A DNA stretch of 51,598 nucleotides from a virus: positions 1 to 51,598 of the IMG/VR virus record IMGVR_UViG_3300018466_000001, one strand, 5' to 3'. Made by a program: the position numbers and the translations under genes. The notes under the pieces are model-generated. The model saw only the letters and a program-made list of their open reading frames with translations, was not told the DNA's origin and did not search any database. Position 1 is the stretch's first letter. Each line of letters starts with the position of its first letter. Shown in pieces: positions 15,948 to 50,869 of the stretch.

Positions 15948-16324
15948 ACCTCCGCATTTTTAAGCATGGCCTCAAGGCGCCGGGCCAGCACCAAGAGTTG
16001 TCGCCGAGACGCGCAGTTGTCACACATCATCCACCCGTCGGACGTTTCGCATGGGTCGCGAGGGTACTCACATGCGATATCACCAATGGTTGAGCGCAAA
16101 CTGGTGACAATCTCTTTGCCGGTCATTCTAGCCTGCGCTTCCTTGGCGGTGAGGTTGGAAACAGTTTCCATCAGTTCCACGATACGGGCGACACGTCCGG
16201 GTACGGTTCTCTTCCCCTTGCGCCAGCGGTTCACCTCGTTGCGGCGAGCGGCAAGTAGATCTGCGGCGGCCTGATCGCTCAGGCCGCGCGCTTCGATCCA
16301 TGCGGAGAACTCGGTAGCGGTCAC
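15938..16324 (-). CDS. HTH protein (128 aa) with a Cys-rich C-terminal half
   Basis: GTG start (GTGA). N-terminus LSDQAAADLLAARRNEVNRWRKGKRTVP. Carries palindrome copy 1 in frame (METVS). Confidence 0.5.
   Translation of the reverse strand: MTATEFSAWIEARGLSDQAAADLLAARRNEVNRWRKGKRTVPGRVARIVELMETVSNLTAKEAQARMTGKEIVTSLRSTIGDIACEYPRDPCETSDGWMMCDNCASRRQLLVLARRLEAMLKNAEVWT
16157..16169. repeat. Palindrome copy 1, GGAAACAGTTTCC
   Basis: Inside CDS 15938-16324. Read on the minus strand as ATG GAA ACT GTT TCC (METVS). Confidence 0.9.
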
Positions 16325-16719
16325 TGCGTGAGCCCCGTCGCAATCGCGTACTCTGCCTGCGCCGCAGCCACGCGAGTGGGGTAGGTGAAGTCCCCTTCCC
16401 GCTTGTCACATACGATGCGCCATTTGCGGTCCGGATAGTTCCGGCTCACGCAGCCAACGGCGCCCGAAGGATAGACGCAATTGTTGACGTACCATCCTCC
16501 GTGCCGCCACGTGGAGAACGTGGGGGTCCATTTAACGATGCAGGGTATACCGAAGCGCATGGAACGAACGTGCCCCCCAAGGGCCACCAGTTCATCCGCC
16601 GCCGCATCCAGCTCTGGCGTAGACTCCGCCATGTATACCGGCCGCCCGTCCTTCAACCATCCACGCATGCGGTCAACGAGCGGGGCGTAGCGGTCATCAG
16701 AAGAATCGCGATCTCTCAT
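16321..16719 (-). CDS. Hypothetical protein (132 aa)
   Basis: ATG at 16719. Its stop overlaps the next GTG. Confidence 0.5.
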   Translation of the reverse strand: MRDRDSSDDRYAPLVDRMRGWLKDGRPVYMAESTPELDAAADELVALGGHVRSMRFGIPCIVKWTPTFSTWRHGGWYVNNCVYPSGAVGCVSRNYPDRKWRIVCDKREGDFTYPTRVAAAQAEYAIATGLTQ

Positions 16720-16811
16720 GGCGGTTCCGGCTCCGGCGTTGGGTGTGGCGTGCTCCGTCTCTCTGTACCAGTGGTAACACCACGCCGCCGGTCGCGCAAG
16801 GGTCTTGTTGC

Positions 16812-17084
16812 TCAGAAGTCGAATGGATCATCGTCCAGCTCCGGAGCGACGAACGAGCCGTAGCCCGTGGCGTCCGGCATCTGGCGCAGCAACTCTACTT
16901 CGTGCAGCAACTTGTTGCCTTCCACGTCCAGCCATGCCGTGTTCGCCTCGGGGTGGGAAATGGTTTCCTCTGCCGCATCCACGGCGGACGGCTTCGTGAG
17001 GTCGTGTTGCTTGGACAGGCGCAGGTCTTGTAGCTCGCGGGCCAGTTCTCGGAAGCGTCTCACGTAGTCGTCGTGGGTTTTCAT
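16812..17084 (-). CDS. Small acidic protein (90 aa) with an SSB-like C-terminal tip DDDPFDF
   Basis: ATG at 17084 (ATGA overlap with the Rad52-like gene). Ends ...FVAPELDDDPFDF. Confidence 0.5.
   Translation of the reverse strand: MKTHDDYVRRFRELARELQDLRLSKQHDLTKPSAVDAAEETISHPEANTAWLDVEGNKLLHEVELLRQMPDATGYGSFVAPELDDDPFDF
16956..16968. repeat. Palindrome copy 2, GGAAATGGTTTCC
   Basis: Inside CDS 16812-17084. Read as GAA ACC ATT TCC (ETIS). Confidence 0.9.
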
Positions 17085-17695
17085 GCGAAGGTCTGACCGG
17101 TGGATTTCTCCACTGCGGTAACGACGCGGCGGGTTTTTTCTGCGCTGTTCTTGAGCGCCTGCCAGTTGTCGCGCACCCACTGCTTAAGCGGGAAGGACTC
17201 ACCCTCCATGTTCAGCGCTACGTCGTCCTCACAGCGGGAGCCTACGTCTTTCAGGAAAGCCATCATCTTGGCGTGCTGCTCGTCCGCCTTGGCGCGGGCG
17301 CGCTGTTCTTCCTCCCTGCCTGCGGCGCCGGTTTTGTCGTACATATCCAAACCCAAACCAAAAAGAGAGCACGTTCGCTTAAACGCCTGAGCAAACGAAT
17401 TGGTCGCGGCATCCCCGAAGTCCACGCCCTCCTCTTCCTCGCTCCCGAAGTTGACGCGTGTAGTGCCGAGGATCGTTATGGGGAGAGCGGTCACGAGTTT
17501 ACCGCCCACGTCGCGCATGACAGGCTCCCCCATGCTCCATCCTGGGCCGACAAGGCGGTTGAGGCGGCGTGCGTAGTGGTGCCAGGAAACAAAGGAGATA
17601 GTCCCTCCCTTCTTCTTCTGCTGGACTAATGCGGGTGGGAAGGGCTCCGCCAGCGCCTTTTCCAGCTCCTCGCACCATTGCGTGTACTCTGCCAT
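17081..17695 (-). CDS. Rad52/Sak-like single-strand annealing protein
   Basis: ISFVSWHHYARRLNRLVGPGWSMGEPV...NSFAQAFKRTCSLFGLGLDMY resembles Rad52-family (DUF1071-type) annealases. Confidence 0.65.
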   Translation of the reverse strand: MAEYTQWCEELEKALAEPFPPALVQQKKKGGTISFVSWHHYARRLNRLVGPGWSMGEPVMRDVGGKLVTALPITILGTTRVNFGSEEEEGVDFGDAATNSFAQAFKRTCSLFGLGLDMYDKTGAAGREEEQRARAKADEQHAKMMAFLKDVGSRCEDDVALNMEGESFPLKQWVRDNWQALKNSAEKTRRVVTAVEKSTGQTFA

Positions 17696-17717
17696 CTGGC
17701 GTCTCTTGGTTCAGCGT

Positions 17718-17730
17718 GGAAACAATTTCC
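17718..17730. repeat. Palindrome copy 3, GGAAACAATTTCC
   Basis: Intergenic, 23 nt upstream of the Rad52-like start. Confidence 0.9.
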
Positions 17731-17882
17731 ATAGAGGGGGAGCGTACCCACGTGACAGGAGAGAGACTGGCGAGCGGCCGGCAGGCCGTTCCTCGCGCGC
17801 TGCCATCTCCTTCTTCCCGGCGAGTCGGGCGCTGCAACCGAGGGGCAGCTACCGGGAGGCTACGCGCCACGTGGGTACGCTG

Positions 17883-18595: not shown

Positions 18596-18861
18596 GCTTC
18601 CTCGTTCGTGTAGAAGTCTGCACCGCTGGTGTGGGGCTTACCTGCTTCCACGTCCTCCTCAGTACGTTCGTCGTGGTCCATGCACGTGCAGTCGTCCATC
18701 CACTCGCCGCATCCGGAGCACAGTTCATCATTGGCGCACGTGCACTCGAACCACGCGTTCCCACAGTGGTTGCAGTTGGCGCTCACGCTCTTCTCTCCCT
18801 CTGACGGTGGGTAGATGTGCAGGGCCTGTAGTCTGTGAAGCGAGAGTTGATCGGGAGTCAT
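18592..18861 (-). CDS. Cys-rich acidic protein (89 aa)
   Basis: NCNHCGNAWFECTCANDELCSGCGEWMDDCTCMDH. ATGA coupling. Confidence 0.5.
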   Translation of the reverse strand: MTPDQLSLHRLQALHIYPPSEGEKSVSANCNHCGNAWFECTCANDELCSGCGEWMDDCTCMDHDERTEEDVEAGKPHTSGADFYTNEEA

Positions 18862-19469
18862 GGGAACGCGTCGGCCATGGAAATCCCATCACCCATCCTG
18901 CCTCCACCAATGACGAACGAAGGTGCCCAGCCGTGTTCCACGAACGCCATGGCGGCGCGCTGCGTATAGCCTTCGCCAGTCAGCCACATAGTGAGTTCAC
19001 CGGGAGACGCGAACACGGGCGATACGGGCGAGCCTTCGGAAACAGTTTCCCATACCTGCCAACCCTCGCCCGCCGGAGGCTCAGTTGCCTCCCATGCTTC
19101 GTACGCATCACGCACTGCGGGGTCCATCCCCTCGCCTTCGCAGACTGAGCAGGTTTTCCACTCGGAGGGAAGTCCTGCCAGTTCGCCCAACTTCTTAACC
19201 GCCGCCCACGCGTCAGTGCTGTCGTGGCCGAAGAGCCCGACGGCACGCCCGGCCAGATAGGAAGTGATCTTAGCGTACTCTGGTGTTCTTAACGCAGAGG
19301 TGTCCCACATCAAACTGTTCACGTGCGCCGCGACCAGTTCATACGCGGGAGAGTAACCGCCACGACATCCGGCAGGGCACTCGCGGTAATGCGGGTTGAT
19401 GAAGCCTCCCCACACCTTGTTGAGCGGCCACGAGAAGTCCAGCGGCACCCTCTTGATTTCGCGTCCCAT
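18858..19469 (-). CDS. Hypothetical protein (203 aa)
   Basis: ATG at 19469. Contains palindrome copy 4 in frame (WETVSE). Confidence 0.5.
   Translation of the reverse strand: MGREIKRVPLDFSWPLNKVWGGFINPHYRECPAGCRGGYSPAYELVAAHVNSLMWDTSALRTPEYAKITSYLAGRAVGLFGHDSTDAWAAVKKLGELAGLPSEWKTCSVCEGEGMDPAVRDAYEAWEATEPPAGEGWQVWETVSEGSPVSPVFASPGELTMWLTGEGYTQRAAMAFVEHGWAPSFVIGGGRMGDGISMADAFP
19038..19050. repeat. Palindrome copy 4, GGAAACAGTTTCC
   Basis: Inside CDS 18858-19469 (WETVSE). Confidence 0.9.
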
Positions 19470-19472: not shown

Positions 19473-19682
19473 TCACCTCAACAGAGAAAGCGGTGCGCAG
19501 TTGAGCGCCTTTGCAAAGCGCTGGAGGCTCTTCAAGGTCACGTTGTCCAACCCGTTCTCCATCATGCTTACGCGGGCGCCGGAGACGGGAGGGTCCATCC
19601 GCTTGCCCAGTTCCCTAACGGAGAGCCCAAGGGCCTCCCTGCGCGCTCTGGCATTGGCTGCGAATCGCTCGTTCAGTTCCAT
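19473..19682 (-). CDS. XRE-family HTH regulator (69 aa)
   Basis: MELNERFAANARARREALGLSVRELGKRM...TLKSLQRFAKAL. Start ATG at 19682. Confidence 0.65.
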   Translation of the reverse strand: MELNERFAANARARREALGLSVRELGKRMDPPVSGARVSMMENGLDNVTLKSLQRFAKALNCAPLSLLR

Positions 19683-19689
19683 GCCTGTA

Positions 19690-19717
19690 AATATACACGT
19701 GAACACCACGGGCGCAA
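19690..19717 (-). promoter_or_regulatory. Promoter TTGCGC-16-TATATT lying 7 nt from the ATG (leaderless-type)
   Basis: Read on the minus strand directly upstream of 19682. Confidence 0.45.
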
Positions 19718-21367: not shown

Positions 21368-21576
21368 GGTGCACCCTCCCTCTCATGCTCCTCGTCAACC
21401 CACGAGCCAGCGTTTAGCACGGCAGCAAGGCGAACCGCAAGCGCCTCGTTCTCTTGGGCCGTGCCCCTTCGGCACTGGACGCCGGGAAAGACGCGCTGTT
21501 CACCGTACACGGCCCAGACCTTGGTGCGGCCGCTCGTGGTCGTGGAGCGCTTTACCTTGAACCTTGGCGTGCTCAT
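21364..21576 (-). CDS. Hypothetical protein (70 aa)
   Basis: ATG at 21576 in an ATGA overlap. Confidence 0.5.
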   Translation of the reverse strand: MSTPRFKVKRSTTTSGRTKVWAVYGEQRVFPGVQCRRGTAQENEALAVRLAAVLNAGSWVDEEHEREGAP

Positions 21577-21785
21577 GCGTTCTCCTGAAACTCACGGGTG
21601 GTTGCGTCGAACAGTCGGTCCCTCACCACGTCTCGCACCCATTCGGCGGGCGTGAGCCCCACGCGCTCGGCTTCTCTCTCTATCTGTGCGTGCTCTCCAT
21701 CGTGCAGAGAAATTTTCATCCTGCGGGAAAAGCGCTTGCCTTCCTTCGGCTTGAAGGAGGTCTTCGTGGCGTGGCGTGGACTCAT
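21573..21785 (-). CDS. Ribbon-helix-helix protein (70 aa)
   Basis: RRMKISLHDGEHAQIEREAERVGLTPAEWVRDVV fits the RHH (CopG/MobC-like) pattern. Confidence 0.55.
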   Translation of the reverse strand: MSPRHATKTSFKPKEGKRFSRRMKISLHDGEHAQIEREAERVGLTPAEWVRDVVRDRLFDATTREFQENA

Positions 21786-22075: not shown

Positions 22076-22119
22076 GGTTCCGCCTCTCTCGGAGAATGCC
22101 TTGGTTCCTCTGCCACCTT

Positions 22120-22148
22120 AAGGTATGCTCCCGTAGTCACCCGCGCAA
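22120..22148 (-). promoter_or_regulatory. Candidate promoter TTGCGC-17-TACCTT
   Basis: Read on the minus strand upstream of 22075. Confidence 0.35.
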
Positions 22149-22248
22149 CTGCGTCTTTTTAACACGCCTGCATCTTCCCCCGGTCCGTCCGTTGCGATAC
22201 CATTTACGCCATGAACGAGACTCGCCCGGTGAACCCACGCCGCTGCTC

Positions 22249-22578
22249 CTATACCCGCCAGAAGAGGCAGGCACGTGCTGCCATGGCTAGGCGGTGGGAA
22301 CTGGCGTCTCGCAACGTCGAACGAGAAGCAGGGCGTTGGCTGCTGGGGACGGATCTCGCATGGAGGCGGTGGGAGGCCGACGATGGGTTGTGGCCGCGCG
22401 AGATCAACTCCAGAGACACAGCCCCGGAACCACAGCACAGGTCGTAGAATTCCTGTTCCGGATGCAGGTACATGTGCCTGACGATCTCCGGTGCCTGTCG
22501 CCGCTTTCCACCCTGGTATGATACAGGAGGTAGTAGGTGCACCCGGCGCGGACGCATCTGGCTGGAAACTGTTTCCAT
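22249..22578 (-). pseudogene. N-terminal fragment of a D12-class (Dam-like) DNA adenine methyltransferase; apparently truncated
   Basis: PPVSYQGGKRRQAPEIV...FYDLCCGSGAVSLEL matches the Y.GGK and motif I parts. No DPPY/NPPY appears in any frame before the next gene. Confidence 0.4.
22564..22576. repeat. Palindrome copy 5, GGAAACTGTTTCC
   Basis: Abuts the ATG of the methyltransferase fragment (METVSS). Confidence 0.9.
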
Positions 22579-22582
22579 GGCC

Positions 22583-22792
22583 CTAGTTCACCTCAACCAC
22601 TTCGCTAACCACCTTCACTAGGCGGAACGTTCCCGGCGGCCAGCGGCTGCGGTTTTCCTTGAACGCCCGGCGAGCGGATGCCTCGTCGGTAAAGCCGTCG
22701 CCGCCCGTAAGCGCGGTCCAGTATCCGTTCCTGCCGATGGCATGCTCGGCGTCTATCCACCCCTCCAATCTCCACGTCGCTTCTTCGCTCAT
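22583..22792 (-). CDS. Hypothetical protein (69 aa)
   Basis: ATG at 22792 in an ATGA overlap. Confidence 0.5.
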   Translation of the reverse strand: MSEEATWRLEGWIDAEHAIGRNGYWTALTGGDGFTDEASARRAFKENRSRWPPGTFRLVKVVSEVVEVN

Positions 22793-23043
22793 CCCTCGGT
22801 CCTTTCCTTGGCGCATCCTGCGAAGAGAGTAAGCACCCTGTCCGCTACCCACGACGTGAAGTCACCAGCGCCGGTGTAACGCTCTTTCTCGCGCCACATG
22901 GAATCAGGCTGTGGCTCCCACTCCCAACGCACGTAGCCGCTTTCCGGGGACGATACGAAACTGACGTGACGGGGAGACGGGGTGCGGCGCTCTATGCGCT
23001 TCCACGGTTCGGAGCGATCGATGCGTTGCCATGGGATGCTCAT
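22789..23043 (-). CDS. Hypothetical protein (84 aa)
   Basis: ATG at 23043 overlaps the stop of ORF 23040-23258. Confidence 0.5.
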   Translation of the reverse strand: MSIPWQRIDRSEPWKRIERRTPSPRHVSFVSSPESGYVRWEWEPQPDSMWREKERYTGAGDFTSWVADRVLTLFAGCAKERTEG

Positions 23044-23364: not shown

Positions 23365-23561
23365 TCGATCTCCACTGCTACGATGCACCGCGCGACCTGC
23401 ACGCCGTACCTGCGCCGGTCGTTGTGGTAGATATTGAACCCGCCTCCGTAGGCACCGTTATACGAGGCGATGGCGTCCTTCCGGCGCTTGTCCACGGTGC
23501 AGGGGAGCGGCCAGCCTCCAGCGTTCACCACGCACCACATACGTACCGTTCTGGCGGTCAC
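23361..23561 (-). CDS. Hypothetical protein (66 aa)
   Basis: GTG/ATG start overlapping the XRE stop. Confidence 0.5.
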   Translation of the reverse strand: MTARTVRMWCVVNAGGWPLPCTVDKRRKDAIASYNGAYGGGFNIYHNDRRRYGVQVARCIVAVEIE

Positions 23562-23812
23562 GATCTCACCTCGCCTTCAAGCACTTCTAGGGGGTTGTCA
23601 GAGAGCAGGGAGGATGCCTTGACGCCCAAGTTAAGCGCTGTACGTTCCAGCGTCGTCAGGGTGGCGTTCCTCTTGCCCGTGCGCCAGAGGGAGGCGAGCT
23701 GCGGAGACACCCCGCTCTCCTTGGCGAACGACTCCGCGTCCAGCTTCCGCGATTCGCGGATCAGATCCAGGTTGCGCACTAGGCGCTGCCCCAGTGTCTC
23801 GGTAGTTTTCAT
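23558..23812 (-). CDS. XRE-family HTH regulator, paralog of 30193-30441
   Basis: MKTTETLGQRLVRNLDLIRESRKLDAESFAKESGVSPQLASLWRTGKRN. Shares a 22-nt identical stretch (gcggatcagatccaggttgcgc) with the paralog. Confidence 0.7.
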   Translation of the reverse strand: MKTTETLGQRLVRNLDLIRESRKLDAESFAKESGVSPQLASLWRTGKRNATLTTLERTALNLGVKASSLLSDNPLEVLEGEVRS

Positions 23813-23819
23813 GGCCTGA

Positions 23820-23848
23820 ATCATACAATCGTCGCAGCCGATGCACAA
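23820..23848 (-). promoter_or_regulatory. Promoter TTGTGC-17-TATGAT lying 7 nt from the ATG (leaderless-type)
   Basis: Minus strand, back-to-back with the plus-strand promoter at 23854. Confidence 0.45.
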
Positions 23849-23853
23849 GAGTG

Positions 23854-23882
23854 TTGACAAGACCGACGAGAGGCGCTAGACT
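23854..23882 (+). promoter_or_regulatory. Near-consensus promoter TTGACA-17-TAGACT driving the RNA island
   Basis: GAGTGTTGACA is shared with the promoter at 30504. Spacer is 17 nt. Confidence 0.6.
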
Positions 23883-24584: not shown

Positions 24585-24894
24585 CATCGGTTGCCCACGG
24601 GCCGTTAGGCGCAGGCGCCATCGTGGGACAAATGATTTGCGGTGCAGAACGCCGGCAACACAGGGCTCAGTGCAGGATGGAGCGCCAGTCCTGCCTGCAC
24701 GCAACCTTTGGGGTGGGGCTTCACCTGAGCGAAGGCGACCGTGCGGTGTTTAGTCAAGTACATAATTCCGAAAGGATTCAGGGTCCGGTGGGAATCAGCC
24801 GTGCGACCGTGGGATTAGAAGACCACAGCAAAGGGCAAGTGACCGCAGGCCGGGAGGCGACAGGAGCGCGCGACCGCTCCACCCGGCACCACAT

Positions 24895-25012
24895 GGAGGG
24901 CGTGGGCAAACTGGTAAAGCCGACGCGCAGAGCGGATGATTCTGGACGCGGAGCGCCGCTAGGCCAGCGGTAAGCACGATCCGGATGCGGGTTCGACCCC
25001 CGCCGCCCTCCC
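24895..25012 (+). ncRNA. Aberrant 118-nt tRNA-like element (8-bp acceptor stacked on a 5-bp T-arm)
   Basis: GGAGGGCG pairs with CGCCCTCC. T-arm is GCGGG-TTCGACC-CCCGC. D-like arm is GGC-AAACTGGTAAA-GCC. An 84-nt non-canonical insert contains the hairpin CCGCT-AGGCC-AGCGG. Confidence 0.4.
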
Positions 25013-25118
25013 TTCACCCGGTGTTCCCGTACGTCGCCCGGTCAAGGCCGATCCTCGCACCTAAGCGGGGCGGAAATGCAAAGTGGACGGCTCGCGTGCG
25101 GGGCATCGGGGATCTCTT

Positions 25119-25131
25119 GGAAACAGTTTCC
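25119..25131. repeat. Palindrome copy 6, GGAAACAGTTTCC
   Basis: In the ORF-poor RNA island. Extended match TGGAAACAGTTTCCGG is shared with copy 7. Confidence 0.9.
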
Positions 25132-25291
25132 GGAGCAGACGGTACCAAGCGAGAGGGGCGCGGCGGCGTCCGGTACGAGAGAACATGGGAGCCTGCCGGC
25201 GGAAAAGCCTCGCAAGAGGCGCAACCCCATAGACTGAGGCTGGTAGCGGGGTGGGGAATCCCGTCTCTCGTTTGGTGTGTCGCTCATCTGT

Positions 25292-25304
25292 GGAAACAGT
25301 TTCC
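25292..25304. repeat. Palindrome copy 7, GGAAACAGTTTCC
   Basis: In the RNA island, 97 nt upstream of tRNA-Gln. Confidence 0.9.
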
Positions 25305-25400
25305 GGCGGGCGGTCTACCGGTACGGTGCCGGGAGCCGAAAGGCCACGGAGCGCAGCGCTGCGTTGATCACGCCTAACCCCGTAGGCCGTCCGCCACGTT

Positions 25401-25472
25401 CGCCCTGTAGCACAACGGTTGTGCGCCCGCCTTTGGAGCGGGAGGTTCTCGGTTCGAATCCGAGCAGGGCAG
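25401..25472 (+). tRNA. tRNA-Gln (anticodon UUG)
   Basis: Hand-folded cloverleaf. D stem GCAC/GTGC, anticodon stem CCCGC/GCGGG, loop CTTTGGA, T arm CTCGG-TTCGAAT-CCGAG. Has a C1/A72 mismatch and G73. No CCA encoded. Confidence 0.85.
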
Positions 25473-25831
25473 TTGGGTGTTGGCGGTAAATAGACCGCCT
25501 GTCGTTTGGAGCTACTGGGAACCGCGCGTTCTGTTCACGGCCCGGACGCTGGTAGCCTGCGGAGGAAGTCCGGATAACACGGCGAAGCGGATGCGCCAGC
25601 CGCCGGGAATCTCCAGAGTCGATACCAGACGGCACCGCCAGCACCCTTTGTCCGCCCGCTCTGTCGCGACAGTGCCTAGCATGCGGGGCTAGGCGAAACC
25701 TGATGGAGTGGGCCACGGTGAAATCGGCTGGAGTGCGGCGTAGGAGCCTTGCGCAAGCGCCGTCGCCAGCCTCCCAAAAGGGCGCCGTGGCTCACAGGTT
25801 TCCACCTCACCAAAACACTCAAGAAATCCCA

Positions 25832-27308: not shown

Positions 27309-28082
27309 TCACCCCTCCACGAAGCAGCCGCAGCCGCCAATATCGTATTCGTCCACGTCGCCGCAGGACACGCGGGAGCGGAGTACCGAGAGCGGCAGGG
27401 GCTTCGTGGTGCCGCCGCGCCTGTCGCGCAGGATAGCGACGTTGCCGATTTGGGCACGTAGCATGTTCTCGTTTCTCTCCCACTCCGCAAACACGTCCGG
27501 CAGAGTGCGCAGTAGATGGGCGAAGTGGCCCTGCCCCGCCTTTACGCAGCCGCCGCCGCAGTTGTTGTGCGCGAACCCGAGTTTGTAGAGGCGCGGAACC
27601 TCGATACCACAGGCGGCAAGGTCTTCCAGAATATCCTCTTTCATCCTGTACGGCGCATCGCACAGGGGGGCCTCACAACGCCATCCGGGGCGGTTCTTCC
27701 GCACGCCTTCAAGGCGGTGCTCTTCGGTCCAGTCGATGCCGTAGTAGAGCACCGTGTCTGCCGGATCGCAGTTGGCCTCCGCCCACGCGTTTGACACGTT
27801 TTGTTTAAGCTTTATCGAGCAGTGGGCCACTCTGGAGTTACCCAAAAACCCCTTTTTGCCGTGAGTACGAAACACCTCCCACGGCGTGCGGCCATCGGCC
27901 AGGATCAGTAATTCGGCCCCCACATCGCGCGCTGCTTCTCCCAAGAATCGGTACAGGTCTGCGTCCTCAATGAGGGTGTCGGTGAAGAGCAGCACCATAT
28001 CCGCCGTCCCGAATCTCTCCGCAACGCGCTTGGCGGCGGCCCAAGACCCTACTCCGCCGGAGAACATGACAACGTGTCTCAC
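27309..28082 (-). CDS. PP-loop ATPase, PAPS-reductase-like family
   Basis: GTG at 28082 (GTGA overlap). Has VVMFSGGVGSWAAAKRV (SGGxxS PP-loop), LLFTDTLIEDADLYRF, and Cys clusters NNCGGGC and GGCGCF. Confidence 0.7.
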   Translation of the reverse strand: MRHVVMFSGGVGSWAAAKRVAERFGTADMVLLFTDTLIEDADLYRFLGEAARDVGAELLILADGRTPWEVFRTHGKKGFLGNSRVAHCSIKLKQNVSNAWAEANCDPADTVLYYGIDWTEEHRLEGVRKNRPGWRCEAPLCDAPYRMKEDILEDLAACGIEVPRLYKLGFAHNNCGGGCVKAGQGHFAHLLRTLPDVFAEWERNENMLRAQIGNVAILRDRRGGTTKPLPLSVLRSRVSCGDVDEYDIGGCGCFVEG

Positions 28083-28879
28083 AAGAGCACCGCCGTCCTC
28101 TCCGCGCGTGCTGCGCTCAGCACTTCCTCGCCCCACTCGCATACGTTGGTCTCTGAGCGCCGCTTTGCCACCGTCAGGGCACGTTCGGCCAGTTCCGCCG
28201 CTCTCGGGTAGTCTCGCATGATCGTGGCGGCCACAGACGCGTGCACGAGGTTCCTTGCCGCGTGTTCGTGGTGGGGGAGTCCAGCGAAGATGAAATCCAG
28301 GGCCACACCCGCGCTGCGGTACTTGTTGGGCGACGACATCAGGGCTGCCGCGTACATGGCGTTCGCGGCAGCGGCCATGTGGAACCTGGGGTGATCCATG
28401 CTGACCGGAACGACTCGCCATGCGTGGAAGGCGTGCGAGGCGCTGTCCCTGCACTGCGGATGGGCGTACATCGTCTCCTCTGCGAAGTCGGCAAGCAGGC
28501 CGGTGATCTGCGGGGCCTTCCTGTTCCGCTCGGAGTACAGTTGGAACGCCTTCGCTCCCCACTCCCTGCGTGCCTTGGGAATCCGCGCCTCCTTGCCTGT
28601 CACGTACAGATCGTGAAGGCTCGGCCCTATCCAGTGCGAGAGGCCATGCCCCACGGCCACGGCCATCGCTTCCTGAAAGCAGGACAATGCCTGCTTGGGC
28701 TCTGCCCTGGACAGGTACACGCGGCCCAAGCAGGCGAAGGCGTGATACGCCACTTCCGGCACCTTCTCGGCGTCCGCTTCCGACAGCGCGGCAGCAACGG
28801 CCATCTCGCATGCGGGCAGGTCTCCGTCTCGGCGTTCTTGCCGGGCGGATGCGAGGAGGATTTCTGCGTTGGAAATCAT
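28079..28879 (-). CDS. All-helical, TPR-like repeat protein (266 aa)
   Basis: ATG at 28879 (ATGA overlap, inside palindrome copy 8). Ala/Leu-rich helical repeats. Confidence 0.45.
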   Translation of the reverse strand: MISNAEILLASARQERRDGDLPACEMAVAAALSEADAEKVPEVAYHAFACLGRVYLSRAEPKQALSCFQEAMAVAVGHGLSHWIGPSLHDLYVTGKEARIPKARREWGAKAFQLYSERNRKAPQITGLLADFAEETMYAHPQCRDSASHAFHAWRVVPVSMDHPRFHMAAAANAMYAAALMSSPNKYRSAGVALDFIFAGLPHHEHAARNLVHASVAATIMRDYPRAAELAERALTVAKRRSETNVCEWGEEVLSAARAERTAVLL

Positions 28880-28883
28880 TTCC
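28871..28883. repeat. Palindrome copy 8, GGAAATCATTTCC
   Basis: Contains the ATG of the TPR-like gene (GGAA ATG ATT TCC = MIS). Confidence 0.9.
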
Positions 28884-29133
28884 GATGAAAGCGAATGGAT
28901 TCGCCTGCCACGTAGCGGTCCTGCACTGCGGAAACACCGAAGCCGGGAACGCCGAGAGTGGCGCAGCGCATGTTGCAGGCGGACGAGTGATTCATCTGCG
29001 TGCCGTTTGGGTTGGCCCAGCAGCCCGCACAGCAGTAGGCGAGCGCGGCGGCCTTCGGGCGGCCACAGCCGCAGGTGTCCGTGGCGACCTCGTTGCCTGC
29101 CGCGTCCAGCAGAGGCGGATACGGCTTGCTCAC
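28876..29133 (-). CDS. Cys-rich small protein (85 aa)
   Basis: TDTCGCGRPKAAALAYCCAGCWANPNGTQMNHSSACNMRC. ATGA coupling at both ends. Confidence 0.5.
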   Translation of the reverse strand: MSKPYPPLLDAAGNEVATDTCGCGRPKAAALAYCCAGCWANPNGTQMNHSSACNMRCATLGVPGFGVSAVQDRYVAGESIRFHRK

Positions 29134-29542: not shown

Positions 29543-29694
29543 AGGATTTCGTCCTCCCATCCACCAGCGTGTACGTCGTCGCTGCCACAGTAGGGGCAGA
29601 ACTGCGGCCCATCGCCTTCGCGACCGTTTCGCAGCGATATTTCGTAGTTGTTGGCGCACTTTCCGCACGTGTACTCTTCGTCGTTGGGGATCAT
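29539..29694 (-). CDS. Zinc-ribbon protein (51 aa)
   Basis: ATG at 29694 (ATGA). Has CGKC...CPYC. Confidence 0.5.
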   Translation of the reverse strand: MIPNDEEYTCGKCANNYEISLRNGREGDGPQFCPYCGSDDVHAGGWEDEIL

Positions 29695-29923: not shown

Positions 29924-29936
29924 GGAAATCATTTCC
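29924..29936. repeat. Palindrome copy 9, GGAAATCATTTCC
   Basis: Intergenic, ending 3 nt upstream of ATG 29921. Confidence 0.9.
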
Positions 29937-30441: not shown

Positions 30442-30448
30442 GGAAGAC

Positions 30449-30503: not shown

Positions 30504-30532
30504 TTGACAGATGGGATGTGGTGTGATATTAT
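30504..30532 (+). promoter_or_regulatory. Near-consensus promoter TTGACA-17-TATTAT driving the cassette 30577-33788
   Basis: GAGTGTTGACA motif. Inverted repeat GGATGT-N14-ACATCC spans the spacer and -10. Confidence 0.6.
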
Positions 30533-36258: not shown

Positions 36259-39134
36259 TACAGTTCCTCCCCCAAAACGATCTCCGCCGAATAGGACCTT
36301 GGGCCTTCCACCGCCCCGGCGTAGTAGCTCAGGCCAACTTTTACACGGCTTCCATCCGGCGCGTGGTAGCTACCGATATCGTCCGTGGCGCCGGGTGACA
36401 GGTTGACCGTCAGGTCCGCTACGCCGTCCATGTAGTAGACCGCACGAACGTCCAGCGTATCGCTGGTGTTGGTCCAATCCGCCTCAAGTGTCGGCTCGTC
36501 TGGCAAAAAGTCGGGGCCTGGACGCAGAAAGGGCGTGCCGGGTGACAGCGTGATACCCCCCCCACCTCCCCCCTCACCCGGCACGCCCGTAATCACGATG
36601 CTGTCCCTCGCTTCCACGTAGGTGCCCCTGTCGCTGAACCCCTGCACCAGCACGTGGTGGGTGCCGTTTCCGACCGACCACGAGGCCGTTCTTACAGTCC
36701 TGAGATATTCACCCTGATAATATAATGCATCTACGTCCGGAGCGCCCCCTATTTTGTCGTAAACCCTCCATCGCACCGTGTCCGCGCCGGGGATGATGGT
36801 CGCGTTCAGCACGCCAAGCGGCGAGTGCGTGAGGTTGAGATTGAAGATGGCGGGGCGCCTGCCGATCCCTCGCACCTCTACGCCGAGGTTTCTGTAGCCC
36901 GCATAGGCGCCCTTCGGCTTGCCGCCGCACTTCCACCGCGTGCGCCCAACTCCAGCGCTCGGGAACGTGTGCGTGAGCAGGAGCACAGCCGAATCCTGGT
37001 CTTCATCGAAGAGGAGGGCGTTCGCCTTCCATCTCACCAGATCCCCCACTTTCGCGAAGGGGCAATACTTGGTCTCGGGCTCCATCGGGAGAGGTGGGTT
37101 GGATACGTCGGGGTAGATGCCGCCAACCATAGCGTCAAGCTGAGCCTGCGTGTTGACGCCCTTCGCCGCCTCTTCGCTGAAGATCAACGGCCGCTCTCCA
37201 TACAGCAGAATGAGCGGGTCCGTGGCTACGTCTTCCTCTGCCGGCAACTGTGAGGTGAGGATCTTTCCGGTCTCATCTTCGGCGTGCCCTATAACGAGCG
37301 TACGCAGGTTGCGGTTATCGGTGCGCAGGGTGTGCACGTCAAGGTACGTCTCGGGCGAGATGGAATAGTCGGGCTCCGTCTTCTCCCGGTCCGGCTCGAT
37401 AACGGCTACCTGCCACTCTTCGTCCACCGGGTTCCACTCCTGCCGGATGGACTTTCCACCCCACTGCTGGGCAAGGTTCTCGATGGCTTCCAGCGCGGAG
37501 ATGTCGCGGACCGGGTATTTGCGCACCGCGAACCCTGCCCCTACCGTAAGATCGTACACTGTGTACTGGCCGTCCCCCATGCGGTCGTCAAGAATGGCCT
37601 GCATCGCAACCAGCGCGTCGGGAGGGGTGTCTTCGTCGCCGTACTCCGTTTCGTTGCGAATGATCGCGTCCGACAGCGGCCCGAGGTAGTCTCTGGCGCT
37701 CAACTGCACGTCGCCGGACTTGCCCGGCCACTCAGGATCATCAGCGACCCCGGCGAACTTCCATTCCCAGTCCCCGCTTTCCGGTTCCACGCCCGGCGGC
37801 AGGATGCAGGTGTAGATCTCGAATTCGCGACCGAAGTCCAGTGCCGGCGCGTATGTCTCCCCGTCTTGGTTCAAGGCGCTACCAGTCATCAGGGGTGCAA
37901 GCGAGAGCGCCCCCACCTGCCGATGCAACGACACTCGCGCGGTCCCGATGGTCTGATCCACTCCGGATGCGGAGACGGTGGCGTCTTTGATCCAGTTGTG
38001 GCCGAAGAAATCACGCAGGGATTGCATGACCCCCGTGCCCTCGGAAATGATTTCCACGCGCACGTCCACGTGCGTCACGTACTCCCCTGATTCCCACAGG
38101 TTGAGCGTCTGGAAGGGCTCAGACGCCCCCCATGCGCTCCATAGCCCATCTCCGTCCTGATGCCGCGCCTCGGCAATCAGGTCCGCATCGTCAACGGGCT
38201 GTCCCTGCGGACCGGTGGGACCTTCGGGTAACCCCGTGGCGATGATCGAGGCAGACCCCAAGGGCAGCGATACAGGGCCGTATTCGATGCCTGACGTCGA
38301 TACGCGCCTGACGCGTACCTGCGTGGCCGCGTGAACCGCAGAGCCGCCAGAGGCCGCCACAAACGCTCCTGCGCCTATTCGAGAGGTCGTGCGCCGGATC
38401 TCCGAGACGGTTACCAACGGGGAGGGCGGAAGGAACCCCCAATCCAGGGGGGCCGTGTCTCCGGCCGTGCCCACGCCCACGCGGTCGTATTCTACCCAGT
38501 GATACGGGTTGGCAAACGGATTGTCGGCGCTGTATGGGGTCGCGCCGTTGAAGCCCACGCCTGCATACCCTGCGGCCAGCGGGGCGCCGTCCGTGGCGTC
38601 GTAAGTGGCGGCGGTGCTCTCCCCGTAATCCGCCTCTCCATCATCCCACGTCCAGAGCTTGAACTCCACCATCCCGCCGGCATCAACCGACAGTCGATAA
38701 CCGTACGGCGTGTCCACGGAAAGCCCGCCGGCCCCCGAATCCAAGACCGTGTGCGCGAGGTTGCCGGTGTGGCGCCGCAGTTGCCGGGTGCCGAAGCCGT
38801 CGATCCCGCACTGGTAGCTACTGCCGTTCGCTGAATTTTGAGCACGGACGAGGCCGAACGTCTGACCATCGTACGCCCACACGTGGACCTTGATGCGCCC
38901 GGCTTCCTGCGTGGGTCCGCTGATGCTGCCAATACCCGTCCAGACGAGCGAATACTTAATTGCGTCGCTGCCACCGATGTAGTTGCGCGGCTCAAGCCGG
39001 AGCACTTGACCGGACAGGCCCCACGCGTCGGCGCGAACCGTTGCCTTGGCAAACGCGGCGTCCTGCGCCTCCGTCCAACCCACCGGTGCGGAGCCGGCCG
39101 TATCCGTGCCGAAGTCGGTCAGGTGGCGAGCCAC
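36258..39134 (-). CDS. Large tail/baseplate host-recognition protein (958 aa)
   Basis: Size and position (tape measure, then a 115-aa protein, then this gene). Has a poly-Gly linker GEGGGGGGI near the C-terminal domain. Confidence 0.6.
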   Translation of the reverse strand: MARHLTDFGTDTAGSAPVGWTEAQDAAFAKATVRADAWGLSGQVLRLEPRNYIGGSDAIKYSLVWTGIGSISGPTQEAGRIKVHVWAYDGQTFGLVRAQNSANGSSYQCGIDGFGTRQLRRHTGNLAHTVLDSGAGGLSVDTPYGYRLSVDAGGMVEFKLWTWDDGEADYGESTAATYDATDGAPLAAGYAGVGFNGATPYSADNPFANPYHWVEYDRVGVGTAGDTAPLDWGFLPPSPLVTVSEIRRTTSRIGAGAFVAASGGSAVHAATQVRVRRVSTSGIEYGPVSLPLGSASIIATGLPEGPTGPQGQPVDDADLIAEARHQDGDGLWSAWGASEPFQTLNLWESGEYVTHVDVRVEIISEGTGVMQSLRDFFGHNWIKDATVSASGVDQTIGTARVSLHRQVGALSLAPLMTGSALNQDGETYAPALDFGREFEIYTCILPPGVEPESGDWEWKFAGVADDPEWPGKSGDVQLSARDYLGPLSDAIIRNETEYGDEDTPPDALVAMQAILDDRMGDGQYTVYDLTVGAGFAVRKYPVRDISALEAIENLAQQWGGKSIRQEWNPVDEEWQVAVIEPDREKTEPDYSISPETYLDVHTLRTDNRNLRTLVIGHAEDETGKILTSQLPAEEDVATDPLILLYGERPLIFSEEAAKGVNTQAQLDAMVGGIYPDVSNPPLPMEPETKYCPFAKVGDLVRWKANALLFDEDQDSAVLLLTHTFPSAGVGRTRWKCGGKPKGAYAGYRNLGVEVRGIGRRPAIFNLNLTHSPLGVLNATIIPGADTVRWRVYDKIGGAPDVDALYYQGEYLRTVRTASWSVGNGTHHVLVQGFSDRGTYVEARDSIVITGVPGEGGGGGGITLSPGTPFLRPGPDFLPDEPTLEADWTNTSDTLDVRAVYYMDGVADLTVNLSPGATDDIGSYHAPDGSRVKVGLSYYAGAVEGPRSYSAEIVLGEEL
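38043..38055. repeat. Palindrome copy 10, GGAAATGATTTCC
   Basis: Inside tail gene 36258-39134 (VEIISE). Confidence 0.9.
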
Positions 39135-44062: not shown

Positions 44063-44277
44063 GCGGGGAAGGACGCGGCGACTTCGCCCTTCTCTTTGTC
44101 CCAAATCCTGAAAGGGAAAATCCTTACATCCACTCCATCAAAGTTGTCTGCCCATATACCCACTTCGCCTGTTTCGGAGTCGGCCCACCTCACGCGGCGT
44201 ACCTCTTCCCCCGCCTCACTCAGAACGCGGTAGCGCCACATGTGGCCCTCTACCTCTGCATCTACTCGCATCCTCAT
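44059..44277 (-). CDS. Hypothetical protein (72 aa)
   Basis: ATG at 44277 in an ATGA overlap. Confidence 0.45.
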   Translation of the reverse strand: MRMRVDAEVEGHMWRYRVLSEAGEEVRRVRWADSETGEVGIWADNFDGVDVRIFPFRIWDKEKGEVAASFPA

Positions 44278-44681
44278 CCTGTCGGGTACGTGGTGATTCG
44301 GTAGCGCAGGTTGCCGTGCCTCAGAAGCCCGTCCTCTTCTTCCAGCGTCACGAGAAGATCCGGCTTAAGCACCGCCGTCCCGTAGCCTTCCAACGTCAGG
44401 GGCTCCACGACCGCCGCATTCATCTGCTCCGCTATCGCCGCGATTTCGCTGTCTTCTAGGACGCGGCTGAAGATGTGTCCGTTCAGGGTGTTCGCCCAGC
44501 CGTTTCCGCCGAGGTGGAGCAAGGCCGGCATCTCCGTCTTCTGGCCGATGCGCAGGTAAGGATGCATGGTGCCCTTCGGCGCGATCCCGTCCAGCACCCG
44601 CCCCCCGATGATGGCGGTCAGAGGACCGTATCCCTTCCAGCGTGCGACCGCCGCCTTTTGCACCGCAGCGAAGGAAATCAT
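44274..44681 (-). CDS. Tail completion/terminator-like protein (DUF3168-like)
   Basis: 135 aa in the head-tail joining cluster. Its start codon lies inside palindrome copy 11 (MIS...). Confidence 0.5.
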   Translation of the reverse strand: MISFAAVQKAAVARWKGYGPLTAIIGGRVLDGIAPKGTMHPYLRIGQKTEMPALLHLGGNGWANTLNGHIFSRVLEDSEIAAIAEQMNAAVVEPLTLEGYGTAVLKPDLLVTLEEEDGLLRHGNLRYRITTYPTG

Positions 44682-44685
44682 TTCC
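44673..44685. repeat. Palindrome copy 11, GGAAATCATTTCC
   Basis: Contains the ATG of 44274-44681 (MIS). Confidence 0.9.
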
Positions 44686-45064
44686 GGAGCGATCCCAAGG
44701 CCCTGCGCACTGCGTCGCCAACGGCCTTCGTGCTCCGCGCCTTCCGCCCCTGGTGCACCTGAAAGAGGAAGTCGTTCGCGGCCATGCGCGAGGTGCCGAG
44801 AATCACAAACCAGAAGTACGGCACGTCGGGGAAGTCTTCTTCCCAGTATCCGACATCGTACGTAAGACCTTCGGCCGAGAAATCAACGCGCGTCTTGCTC
44901 GCCATGTAGCCCGTATCCCGAGGGCACGCCGCCTCTGCTTCCTCGCGCTGCGCGATCCCATTGGCCCTCACGGCCTTCCGCACCTCGCGTGGCACGGCAC
45001 GGCGGGCGGCGTGGATGTTGGCAACCAGACCGGAGAGCCCGGTCACCTTGAGCCCGCCTCTCAT
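44678..45064 (-). CDS. HK97 gp10-like head-tail component
   Basis: 128 aa. MRGGLKVTGLSGLVANI...TGYMASKT pattern and position. Confidence 0.5.
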   Translation of the reverse strand: MRGGLKVTGLSGLVANIHAARRAVPREVRKAVRANGIAQREEAEAACPRDTGYMASKTRVDFSAEGLTYDVGYWEEDFPDVPYFWFVILGTSRMAANDFLFQVHQGRKARSTKAVGDAVRRALGSLRK

Positions 45065-45405
45065 GCTGCGCCCTTGGGCGTGATCTCAAATTGCTGGTGG
45101 ACGCTGAACGAATGCAGGTCGAGCGATTCGACAACGTAGGTGCCAGAGAAGCCAGTCCGGGGAGACTCTACCGCGATCTCGCTGGTTTCCTCCACCTCCA
45201 CGCCCAGCGGCAGAGACAGCAACAGCGCGTCCCCCTTCCTCTGCACTCTGCCCATCGTCACTACTACATCAGCCGCGCCCTTGATGCGCCCGCCCAACTC
45301 CCCTTCCGCGATTGCGTACGTCGTGATCGCCACGGTGTCCGGCATCTCTGACTCGGATATCCGCACGAATTCGGCTATGGTGCCGGCGTCGAAGAGGAGT
45401 CCCAT
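45061..45405 (-). CDS. Head-tail adaptor/head closure protein (by position)
   Basis: 114 aa. ATGA-type coupling on both sides. Confidence 0.45.
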   Translation of the reverse strand: MGLLFDAGTIAEFVRISESEMPDTVAITTYAIAEGELGGRIKGAADVVVTMGRVQRKGDALLLSLPLGVEVEETSEIAVESPRTGFSGTYVVESLDLHSFSVHQQFEITPKGAA

Positions 45406-45812
45406 CAGAACACCACCGTCACGGGGACGGATTCGGACGGCATAAAGGAGCCAGACGCGGAAACTGTTTCCACCACTCCGGCGTTGCCTAGCGCCACCTC
45501 GAACTCAGCCCTGTACTTCGCGGCTTCCTTGCTGAACCAGCCGCGTTGATCCTTGATGGACCGGCCGCCCACGCCTTCAAGGTTGGCAGTGTCCGGGGAG
45601 CCGGCCAGCGCCCAAAACTTCGCGTCGAATGCGCGGTAATATCCGTACGGTAGCGCGATGGCGTCACCCTGTGCCTCCGTCGCTCCGTCCGGCGTGAGCG
45701 CCGCCGCCTGCTCCAGCCACAGGGTGAGATTCGCGGGCAGGTCTTCACCCGGAAACCATGATTCGTACACGCGCCCCGTAGGCTGGATGAAGTCGGCGGC
45801 AGTCACGGCCAT
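45405..45812 (-). CDS. Head-tail connector protein (by position)
   Basis: 135 aa, downstream of the capsid gene. Contains palindrome copy 12 in frame (VETVSA). Confidence 0.45.
   Translation of the reverse strand: MAVTAADFIQPTGRVYESWFPGEDLPANLTLWLEQAAALTPDGATEAQGDAIALPYGYYRAFDAKFWALAGSPDTANLEGVGGRSIKDQRGWFSKEAAKYRAEFEVALGNAGVVETVSASGSFMPSESVPVTVVF
45459..45471. repeat. Palindrome copy 12, GGAAACTGTTTCC
   Basis: Inside CDS 45405-45812 (VETVSA). Confidence 0.9.
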
Positions 45813-48678: not shown

Positions 48679-48696
48679 GAGACGATATCAAGACCC

Positions 48697-49297: not shown

Positions 49298-49335
49298 CCG
49301 CCACCGAGTTTCTCCGCATGCCCCTTATCGACAGA

Positions 49336-49950
49336 TCACCTGAATTCCCATTCGCACTTGCATCGCGTACGGCAATCGCGTGCCCCAATCTCGGGTACTT
49401 CCCTGCTCTTGATCGGGTGCCAACCCGCCGCCGTGGCCGCCACGCACCCCGCGCACGAATCCCCACGGTGCCGCTTGTTGCGCTTCTCGGTAGATCCGCG
49501 CAAGTCCTGCTCGGCTATCTCTATGCGGTGGTAGAGAGGGCGTCCGGCTTGGGTGTATAGGTGCGCGCGGGCGTTCAGCCTGCCGTCCAGCAGTTGTCGG
49601 CCCGCCTGCACGTCCTGGGCGAAACCGCGTAGGTACTGGTACTGGCCTCGTACGTACTGCCCCACCCGCCCGTAATCCGCATCGCTCATCTGCGCCCAAC
49701 CACCCTTAGCAGCCGCAGCGCTGTAGAGGGAGACGTTCTTGATCTCGCGGCGCATGGCGACTTCCCAGGAGATCAGGTCTATGTTGCCGGTCCGCAGGGC
49801 TGTTGCGAGGCCGTCAATACGTTTCGTGGCGGTGTCTAGAGCTACGTCCAGCCACGCGCGGACCTGTGCAGGCTGAACAAATCGGCCGCCGGGTCCGCGA
49901 TACCTGCCTGCCACGCGGTCGTAAGTGTACTCAGGACGTTTGCGCGGCAT
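49336..49950 (-). CDS. Head morphogenesis/minor capsid protein (MuF/SPP1 gp7-like)
   Basis: 204 aa. C-terminal Cys cluster ...CAGC...DCRTRCKCEW resembles the CRC-type ending of gp7-family proteins. Position is between the portal and scaffold genes. Confidence 0.4.
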   Translation of the reverse strand: MPRKRPEYTYDRVAGRYRGPGGRFVQPAQVRAWLDVALDTATKRIDGLATALRTGNIDLISWEVAMRREIKNVSLYSAAAAKGGWAQMSDADYGRVGQYVRGQYQYLRGFAQDVQAGRQLLDGRLNARAHLYTQAGRPLYHRIEIAEQDLRGSTEKRNKRHRGDSCAGCVAATAAGWHPIKSREVPEIGARDCRTRCKCEWEFR

Positions 49951-50122
49951 CGCGCGCCTTTTCTAGGACGTTGAGTACCTGTTCAAGTTCTGAAGCGTCT
50001 ACATGTACCTGCGACGGACCAACCCGCATCCCGCCTCGCGTGCGCGCCTCTTCAATGGCTCGCCGCATGCGCTTGACGACGTGCGCGAGCAAGCCGCTAC
50101 GCAACTCTTGCACGTCGCTCAT
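49931..50122 (-). CDS. Hypothetical protein (63 aa)
   Basis: Internal ATG at 50122. Sequence begins MSDVQELRSGLLAHVVKRMRRAIEEA... Confidence 0.45.
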   Translation of the reverse strand: MSDVQELRSGLLAHVVKRMRRAIEEARTRGGMRVGPSQVHVDASELEQVLNVLEKARDAAQTS

Positions 50123-50166
50123 TTGCTGGTCCAGTTGCAACGCACGAACGCGTTCCGATCTTCTCG

Positions 50167-50634
50167 TTAGCGTCCATGCGACAACCCGCTTCGCTTCTGG
50201 AACCGGCGGTTTCGTCCCCGCCCGCGAGTCTGCCCAGTTGCGTGGTATGCAGGCGCGAACAGGGTCATCGTGGCGCTTGCCTTCTCGGCGCTCTCTCCTG
50301 CACGTGCAAGAGCGTCGGCGCTCGGGATAATGCTGTGCGCGTACGGGTTCGCACCCTGCGCCGCCTCCTCGGGACTCTTGCCATGGACAAGCAGGTCTCC
50401 CACCCGTTCCAGTGCCTTCTGCCGGGCAGGAGTGCCGTCGAACAGGGGGCATCGAGACACGGCGGTCTCGTATTCCTCCTGAGTTCGACAGACCGCGCGC
50501 ACGCGGTGCTGGGCCGCCTGCATGTCCAGCATCGCGTGTAGGGCAAGGTTCCACTGGAGCAGGCGCGCGCGTAGCGTACCAATGCCGACCCCAACACCAT
50601 CCGCGACCACGCGAGAAAGTTCTTTAGCGTCCAT
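50167..50634 (-). CDS. Hypothetical protein (155 aa)
   Basis: ATG at 50634 with GGAGGTG upstream. Palindrome copy 13 lies 20 nt upstream. Confidence 0.5.
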   Translation of the reverse strand: MDAKELSRVVADGVGVGIGTLRARLLQWNLALHAMLDMQAAQHRVRAVCRTQEEYETAVSRCPLFDGTPARQKALERVGDLLVHGKSPEEAAQGANPYAHSIIPSADALARAGESAEKASATMTLFAPAYHATGQTRGRGRNRRFQKRSGLSHGR

Positions 50635-50869
50635 CCGCCACCTCCGCCCTGTTGGAAATTGTTTCCACGTCGATACCAGCGGCTTCGATCTTGGACACCG
50701 GCATAACGAAGCGCCTCGTGACCCAGCCTTGCGCGATGGGGATCAGCACCGTCAGGAAGGTGCCCCAAAGCGTTGCCTTCTCGCCGCTCAGGATGCCGTA
50801 GGAGACAAGCAGGGCCATGCCGGCACCGATCACGCCCACGGCCATGGCTGGCTCTCGTGAGACCTTCAT
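50624..50869 (-). CDS. Two-TM membrane protein (81 aa), holin-like
   Basis: ATG at 50869 (ATGA). Hydrophobic segments AMAVGVIGAGMALLVSYGIL and LWGTFLTVLIPIAQGWV. Confidence 0.4.
   Translation of the reverse strand: MKVSREPAMAVGVIGAGMALLVSYGILSGEKATLWGTFLTVLIPIAQGWVTRRFVMPVSKIEAAGIDVETISNRAEVADGR
50654..50666. repeat. Palindrome copy 13, GGAAATTGTTTCC
   Basis: In the 3' end of CDS 50624-50869 (VETISN), 20 nt upstream of ATG 50634. Confidence 0.9.

Follow-up and report, generated by a model that had tools for sequence, protein, structure and literature searches.

Thirteen Invariant Copies of a Dispersed Palindrome in an Uncultivated Phage Genome Are Candidate Operators for a Dimeric Regulator

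Introduction

Why would a phage carry one short palindrome many times over, letter for letter, both between its genes and within them? The question is raised by the IMG/VR virus record IMGVR_UViG_3300018466_000001, a complete JGI metagenome contig of 51,598 bases that was analysed in full (the window), and by the palindrome GGAAA-N3-TTTCC, which a first, sequence-only reading had located thirteen times in it. That reading held that nine copies overlap minus-strand coding sequence in a single codon register, that a simple operator would not be expected to keep such a register, and that the copies reflect either a translation- or RNA-level role or strong joint constraints on DNA and protein. The motif proves to be real and strongly selected, and its copies are, on balance, probably dispersed operators for a dimeric DNA-binding regulator acting inside operons.

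Results

The Motif Is Invariant and Symmetric

The coordinates and sequences of all thirteen copies were confirmed exactly (Table 1). The pattern GGAAAYNRTTTCC occurs 13 times, against 0.01 expected in dinucleotide-preserving shuffles, an enrichment of more than 1000-fold. No one-mismatch variant of the motif is present in the window, two-mismatch matches are at chance level (3 versus 3.4 expected), and isolated half-sites are not enriched (37 versus 36.6 expected). Likewise, no other spacing of GGAAA and TTTCC, no other palindrome and no other k-mer is enriched in the window. The central triplet is YNR, and GGAAAY-N-RTTTCC exact, in 13/13 copies. When the copies are aligned along transcription, a Y is found at position -1 and an R at position +13, each in 11/13 copies, with no conservation past these flanking bases; the central triplet shows no orientation bias. 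The full element is a 15-bp palindrome, YGGAAAY-N-RTTTCCR, with the half-site YGGAAAY in a 7-1-7 arrangement. An extension to TTTCCA(C/T) in seven copies and a 16-mer common to the copies at 25119 and 25292 (TGGAAACAGTTTCCGG), both described in the sequence-only reading, are present as described. The smallest distance between sites is 173 nt, and a 17-kb arc that lacks sites is not significant (P = 0.1).

Selection Acts on the Nucleotides

What is under selection in the motif is its nucleotide sequence, rather than the peptides encoded by it. The phage proteome contains six x-E-[TIM]-[VI]-S peptides against 0.54 expected, all six carrying the motif. At the site at 19038 the encoded W-E-T-V-S is nearly invariant across the protein family, and twelve homologous genes from other viral contigs encode it by other codons, some of them one base off, such that 0/12 form the motif; with the codon usage of the phage, the right codons would occur there by chance in about 1.3% of cases. 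At the site at 38043 the window encodes E-I-I-S where an orthologue (that of L002) has E-R-P-E, with no indel and with homology running on both sides. Because of the synonymous choice at 19038 and the indel-free amino-acid change at 38043, we conclude that the sites arise in place and not as insertions.

The gene carrying the site at 19038 (18858-19469, minus strand) represents a large uncharacterised phage protein family, with 1,542 representatives at E <= 0.001, that is characterised by four invariant cysteines and a conserved block, GWQ-x-WETVSEGSP-x-SPVF.

The Codon Register Follows from Coding Constraints

The single codon register is a product of coding constraints and is not a special property of the motif. 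The six copies inside genes are all read G-GAA-AYN-RTT-TCC, as had been proposed; the remaining three of the nine copies carry caveats. In the two overlap copies (28871 and 44673) the downstream gene is read in this register and the upstream gene as GGA-AAT-GA, and the copy at 22564 is probably non-coding because the open reading frame (ORF) that would render it coding has a negative coding score. Against codon-aware null models, the number of copies is far in excess and the frame bias is not: the codon frequencies of the phage predict 0.006 copies in all coding sequence versus 7-9 observed, and synonymous-codon shuffles that keep the proteins yield 0.07 copies per genome, all of them in the observed register. 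The share of copies expected in that register is 69% from codon usage and 79% from amino-acid composition, giving a probability that all fall in one register of 0.11-0.24 for six copies and 0.035-0.12 for nine. The preference arises because the other two registers require K-x-F-P or G-N-x-F, which are rarer peptides with rarer codons.

A shared codon register is consequently no argument against an operator, since coding constraints alone place 69-79% of copies there. Of the two alternatives offered in the sequence-only reading, joint constraints on DNA and protein are supported, and for a translation- or RNA-level role the proximity of sites to start codons, described below, is the one positive indication. 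For genome scans the case carries a caution: a common codon register in a DNA-level motif is to be expected from coding constraints, and is no evidence of a translational role.

The Sites Lie Mostly at Gene Boundaries

The centres of 7/13 sites fall within -10 to +65 nt of a start codon versus 1.9 at random positions (P about 0.001, for an interval picked after inspection of the data), and the earlier count of six copies at or within 35 nt of a start codon holds. Offsets from the centre to the nearest start range from -8 to +60 nt among these near-start sites; the other six sites are >100 nt from any start. Five copies probably fall outside coding sequence (2.2 expected, P = 0.055), two lie on stop/start overlaps and three near protein termini or a domain junction, site 1 being located at the end of the N-terminal helix-turn-helix (HTH) part of its protein, at a possible internal start. 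Only the copies at 16956, 19038 and 38043 are deep inside genes. This placement fits a regulatory role at gene junctions inside operons; it also fits a function that needs only dispersed copies, which would have settled where the proteins tolerate them best.

Table 1. The thirteen motif copies of the window and their surroundings
Site	Position	Sequence	Context
1	16157..16169	GGAAACAGTTTCC	Within ORF 15938-16324; M-E-T-V-S at codons 52-56
2	16956..16968	GGAAATGGTTTCC	Within gene 16812-17084, codon 39/90; E-E-T-I-S
3	17718..17730	GGAAACAATTTCC	Non-coding gap of 187 nt; 22 nt from the end of the site to the downstream ATG (annealing-protein gene 17081-17695)
4	19038..19050	GGAAACAGTTTCC	Within gene 18858-19469; family-conserved W-E-T-V-S, motif from synonymous codon choice
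5	22564..22576	GGAAACTGTTTCC	Begins 6 nt past the stop of gene 22583-22816; heads ~500 nt without a convincing ORF
6	25119..25131	in 16-mer TGGAAACAGTTTCCGG	Non-coding, plus-strand RNA island
7	25292..25304	in 16-mer TGGAAACAGTTTCCGG	Ends 8 nt upstream of the c4-2-like RNA match and 96 nt upstream of tRNA-Gln
8	28871..28883	GGAAATCATTTCC	Centre is ATGA: stop of 28876-29133 and start of the TPR-like gene 28079-28879 (M-I-S)
9	29924..29936	TGGAAATGATTTCCA (minus strand)	Intergenic; 4 nt past a stop, 2 nt before the ATG of 29691-29921
10	38043..38055	GGAAATGATTTCC	Within the gene of a 958-aa tail protein, codon 360; E-I-I-S
11	44673..44685	GGAAATCATTTCC	Centre is ATGA: stop of 44678-45064 and start of the tail-completion gene 44274-44681 (M-I-S)
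12	45459..45471	GGAAACTGTTTCC	V-E-T-V-S in the variable C-terminal tail encoded by gene 45405-45812; next start 53 nt downstream
13	50654..50666	GGAAATTGTTTCC	Near the C terminus of the membrane-protein gene 50624-50845; V-E-T-I-S; 19 nt upstream of the next start

Several further features adjoin individual sites. The copy at 22564 lies at the upstream edge of a stretch of ~500 nt in the early minus-strand operon (22076-22582) that has no positive-scoring ORF. The gap upstream of the annealing-protein gene contains an 11-nt inverted repeat on the minus strand (GTACCCACGTG at 17868-17878 and CACGTGGGTAC at 17744-17754, with the arms 113 nt apart), which ends 13 nt before the copy at 17718. The RNA island is a plus-strand region that is non-coding throughout (24585-25830) and is followed by an RNA ligase gene (PF09414). 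The region 25312-25390 (+) matches the c4-2 antisense RNA family (RF02944) below threshold, with 34.4 bits against a gathering score of 41 (E = 6e-5); the match begins 8 nt past the copy at 25292 and stops 10 nt short of tRNA-Gln (25401-25472). A tRNA-like 3' half with the T-arm GGGTTCGACCCC, called by neither ARAGORN nor Rfam, is located at ~24953-25005 (+).

The Motif in Other Genomes

Searches of IMG/VR with TGGAAACNGTTTCCA gave single chance matches only, among the matches listed, and a search for a two-copy pattern in IMG/VR and metagenomes revealed no other genome with dispersed copies. The matches to the two-copy pattern are tandem G-N-x-F coding repeats, unrelated repeats and one bacterial operator-like array, and none is homologous to the window. 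The array, at 3960-4230 of contig Ga0302283_1000074 (68% G+C), comprises three exact GGGAAAC(C/G)GTTTCCC sequences and two near-copies directly upstream of the gene for a 183-aa XRE-type HTH protein (3408-3959, minus strand). The array is unrelated, operator-like and built on the same core, and its HTH protein has no significant similarity to any window protein. A literature search for the motif string returned no match.

Genomic Setting

The termini of the window (1-123 and 51476-51598) are identical, and this 123-nt overlap indicates that the assembly is circular, with a length of ~51,475 bp. The phage is siphovirus-like, with a G+C content of 63% and most genes on the minus strand. Genes were called by a codon-usage model trained on long ORFs. 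Those recognised encode the large terminase (TerL), the major head protein, a tape measure protein, an endolysin, a DnaC-like helicase loader, a single-strand annealing protein, a PAPS-reductase-like protein and a tail-completion protein, and the RNA ligase gene adjoins tRNA-Gln. No near relative of the phage was found in INPHARED by megablast and tblastn. The top TerL homologue among 5.8 billion proteins is 70% identical, and the nearest prophage-like TerL homologues (55-57% identity) come from Thermomicrobiales, Chloroflexia and other metagenome-assembled genomes (MAGs) of mixed phyla. Pfam searches of the called genes, which underlie all gene absences reported here, detected no integrase, partition protein or methyltransferase, despite the presence of two repressor-like XRE modules and the c4-like RNA.

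A near-identical pair of strong sigma-70-like promoters on the plus strand, with the elements GAGTGTTGACA-17-TAGACT (23854-23882) and GAGTGTTGACA-17-TATTAT (30504-30532), brackets a larger island that contains the RNA genes, the RNA ligase gene and the PAPS-reductase-like and TPR-like genes. Each promoter is arranged divergently with a different member of a paralogous pair of XRE HTH genes (23558-23860 and 30193-30442, both minus strand). Two tandem small cysteine-rich ORFs (2316-2636 and 2684-3001, minus strand), flanked by the genes for the large terminase and a putative portal protein, share the leader MRKL(K/T)L(D/A)LD..(E/D)SF(A/S)T; this leader resembles those of precursors of ribosomally synthesized and post-translationally modified peptides (RiPPs).

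Discussion

We favour the reading in which the 13 copies are dispersed operators. On this reading, one symmetric, dimeric, sequence-specific regulator would bind the sites as double-stranded DNA with high affinity, recognising the YGGAAAY half-sites in their 7-1-7 arrangement; to judge from the sequence, a dimer is favoured by the two-fold symmetry, which reaches the flanks, and by the invariance of the central Y and R. The sites are spread over early, RNA-island and late transcription units. Because they lie mostly at operon-internal gene junctions, and not at recognisable sigma-70 promoters, we infer that the bound protein would act as an operon-internal operator or roadblock, which could silence or time many transcription units at once. 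Such logic would be that of other dispersed phage operators, for example the L5 stoperators and the P1 C1 operators. The binder may be a small phage protein of the HTH or ribbon-helix-helix (RHH) type, several small genes of these types being present as candidate regulators (8336-8545, 14202-14405, 15938-16324, 19473-19709, 21573-21785 and 29691-29921), or a host IclR-family regulator with the same published box. Searches of PDB sequences with four candidate proteins were uninformative. The paralogous XRE regulators (23558-23860 and 30193-30442) are unlikely binders, as their own shared promoter regions lack the motif.

A number of observations weigh against dispersed operators. No copy of the motif, and no equivalent enriched palindrome, was found in the five closest relatives (from IMG/VR, with an 84% identical capsid protein, and from contigs with 65-70% identical TerL) or in 31 prophage-like loci. 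The distance from site to start varies from 0 to >1000 nt, so that there is no fixed regulatory geometry; both strong sigma-70-like promoters lack the motif, and no predicted promoter adjoins any site. Pfam recognised no IclR-family, ParB or other matching regulator among the called genes. Total invariance is unusual for the regulon of a transcription factor and, because the palindrome is also present in RNA, the sequence alone cannot part a DNA-level from an RNA-level role. A promoter element was considered separately and rejected, given the absence of extended conservation and the two strong promoters that do without the motif.

The RNA-level alternative is that a phage protein recognises a GGAAAYNRUUUCC hairpin, leading to repression of translation at starts or to cleavage of polycistronic or non-coding RNA, for which the operators of T4 RegA and the MS2 coat protein are precedents. 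Seven sites are close to a start codon, four of them overlapping or abutting it and three lying 19-53 nt upstream; two sites flank RNA genes in the non-coding island adjoining the RNA ligase gene, flanking bases could lengthen the stem in 9/13 copies if G-U pairs are counted, and each copy is transcribed from either strand. However, the hairpin is weak (-1.6 to -3.2 kcal/mol, no better than shuffled sequence), there are no wobble or compensatory variants, and a hairpin whose loop has 3 nt would leave the symmetric Y (position 6) and R (position 8) unpaired. Three copies are, moreover, deep inside genes, and Pfam recognised no RNA-binding protein in the called genes. We therefore consider an RNA-level element unlikely; if it were true, the motif would mediate start-codon-associated translation control or RNA processing linked to the island with its c4-like RNA, tRNA and RNA ligase. 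A further reading is that the copies are traces left by a miniature palindromic mobile element, or that they result secondarily from recurrent peptides or codon usage, as the same 13-mer arises from tandem G-N-x-F coding repeats elsewhere in metagenomes; this is exceedingly improbable, since the window sites show no tandem repeat and codon-aware nulls yield only 0.006-0.07 copies. An insertion-element origin in particular is ruled out by the absence of an indel in the orthologue comparison at 38043, by the ancestral peptide, W-E-T-V-S, that underlies the site at 19038 and by flanking sequence that is not conserved.

Other DNA-level roles can be envisaged, namely partition or a centromere of a plasmid prophage (as in N15 and RK2 KorB), recombination linkers at module boundaries, or recognition sites for modification or nicking. 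They would accommodate invariant, dispersed sites at gene junctions; an extrachromosomal lifestyle is possible because no integrase was found, the c4-like RNA is of a type known from the plasmid prophage P1, and the repeats of Cluster O mycobacteriophages recombine between copies (PMC4351075). We nevertheless judge these roles decidedly unlikely, as Pfam detected no gene for ParA, ParB, KorB, a recombinase, a methyltransferase or a nickase, homology with the orthologue passes straight through the site at 38043, and enrichment is opposite to what is expected of restriction targets. The copies could also be consensus-strength boxes for a metabolic regulator of the IclR family that belongs to the host, either coupling phage expression to carbon status or titrating the regulator off host operons during replication of the phage genome. 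This possibility draws on the half-site TGGAAAT and the 7-1-7 geometry, which are those of the IclR box (compared below), on the lack of an IclR-type protein of the phage's own and on the precedent of phages that accumulate sites for host regulators such as CtrA (PMC9437464). It is an improbable one: the box comes from E. coli, an organism unrelated to the Thermomicrobiales, Chloroflexia and other MAG candidates; related phages lack the motif; no tandem pairs at 18-22 nt spacing occur; and most sites are outside promoter regions. We extend a similarly small credence to a broader proposal, in which a host IclR-type regulator, or an unrecognised phage protein of the same specificity, would be served by 13 consensus-strength boxes genome-wide, with start-codon operators at the RNA level as a reading alongside. 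Under this proposal, the boxes could serve as roadblocks inside operons, making phage development depend on the carbon status of the host, or they could together form a sponge that replicates with the phage and draws the repressor off host operons.

Dispersed operators, the reading that we prefer, can be compared with several known systems. P1 C1 operators, N15 sop sites and the RK2 KorB operator OB (TTTAGCSGCTAAA) are each present as about a dozen near-identical sites per 50-100 kb replicon, and the RK2 sites are 13-bp palindromes of which some copies are far from promoters or intragenic. In contrast to the window, those replicons encode the cognate C1, SopB or KorB, no gene for which was found here by Pfam. 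The DNA uptake sequences of Haemophilus and Neisseria show a strong reading-frame preference when located in genes, because only some frames encode tolerable peptides. They resemble the window sites as DNA-level selected motifs embedded in genes with a frame preference, but are asymmetric, occur in thousands of copies per bacterial chromosome and serve an unrelated function in transformation.

The stoperators of Cluster A mycobacteriophages (L5 gp71) are 13-bp sites found throughout early and late operons, often at gene junctions, where the bound repressor blocks elongation (PMC9283540, PMC6550527). The window similarly has many 13-bp copies across operons, often at gene junctions, but its sites are palindromic and invariant, whereas stoperators are asymmetric, oriented with transcription, bound by monomers and variable. 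The start-associated sequences of Cluster K are a conserved asymmetric 13-bp motif that precedes the start codon by a short, constant spacing and stands in for the ribosome-binding site (PMC3203893). They share with the window motif the length of 13 bp, a tie to translation starts and a high-GC phage genome, but the window sites are of varying geometry and six copies are not near any start.

The operator of E. coli IclR, the IclR box, is TGGAAATNATTTCCA (Pan et al., 1996, as tabulated in PMC8222616, Table 1; also PMC13273656). Its half-site, TGGAAAT, and its 7-1-7 arrangement are identical to those of the window element, four window sites contain its exact 13-bp core (GGAAATNATTTCC), and the site at 29924 (minus strand, TGGAAATGATTTCCA) matches it at 15/15 positions. 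The window sites differ in also accepting C/G at positions 6 and 8. According to a survey of the IclR family, sites overlap promoters or lie 20-80 nt upstream of starts, and many orthologous groups have tandem pairs 18-22 nt apart (PMC8222616). In contrast, the window sites are dispersed, often intragenic and not paired in tandem, with 3/13 being 26-60 nt upstream of a start. Neither HTH_IclR nor the IclR effector domain had a Pfam match in the called phage genes at E <= 0.01. We treat the match to the IclR box as a lead, and not as membership of the family.

The closest described phenomenon is the 17-bp repeat 5'-TGTTCGGNNNCCGAACA of Cluster O mycobacteriophages (Cresawn et al., 2015; PMC4351075). 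In Corndog there are 34 copies, whose half-sites do not vary, and just three variants with one mismatch. The Cluster O repeats are intergenic, 5'-proximal or mid-gene, are denser in non-structural genes and are absent from other phages; a dimeric binding protein was proposed, and the function was left open (PMC4351075). Both systems combine invariant inverted half-sites and a short free spacer with few or no one-mismatch variants, the same mix of positions and a higher density of copies among non-structural genes. They differ in sequence, in geometry (7-N3-7 in Cluster O versus a 5-N3-5 core, or 7-1-7 with flanks, here) and in copy number (34 versus 13), and the Cluster O repeats are conserved across a cluster of isolated phages, whereas the window motif is known from a single metagenomic genome. 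These comparisons point to an analogue and not a homologue. The window provides a second, independent case of dispersed, letter-perfect palindromes, in an unrelated, uncultivated phage, for a phenomenon whose function in Cluster O has been open since 2015. To that phenomenon it adds evidence of selection at the nucleotide level, in that sites were created in one case through the codons chosen for a conserved peptide and in another through replaced amino acids, and, because the site equals the IclR box, it also adds a concrete candidate class of binder.

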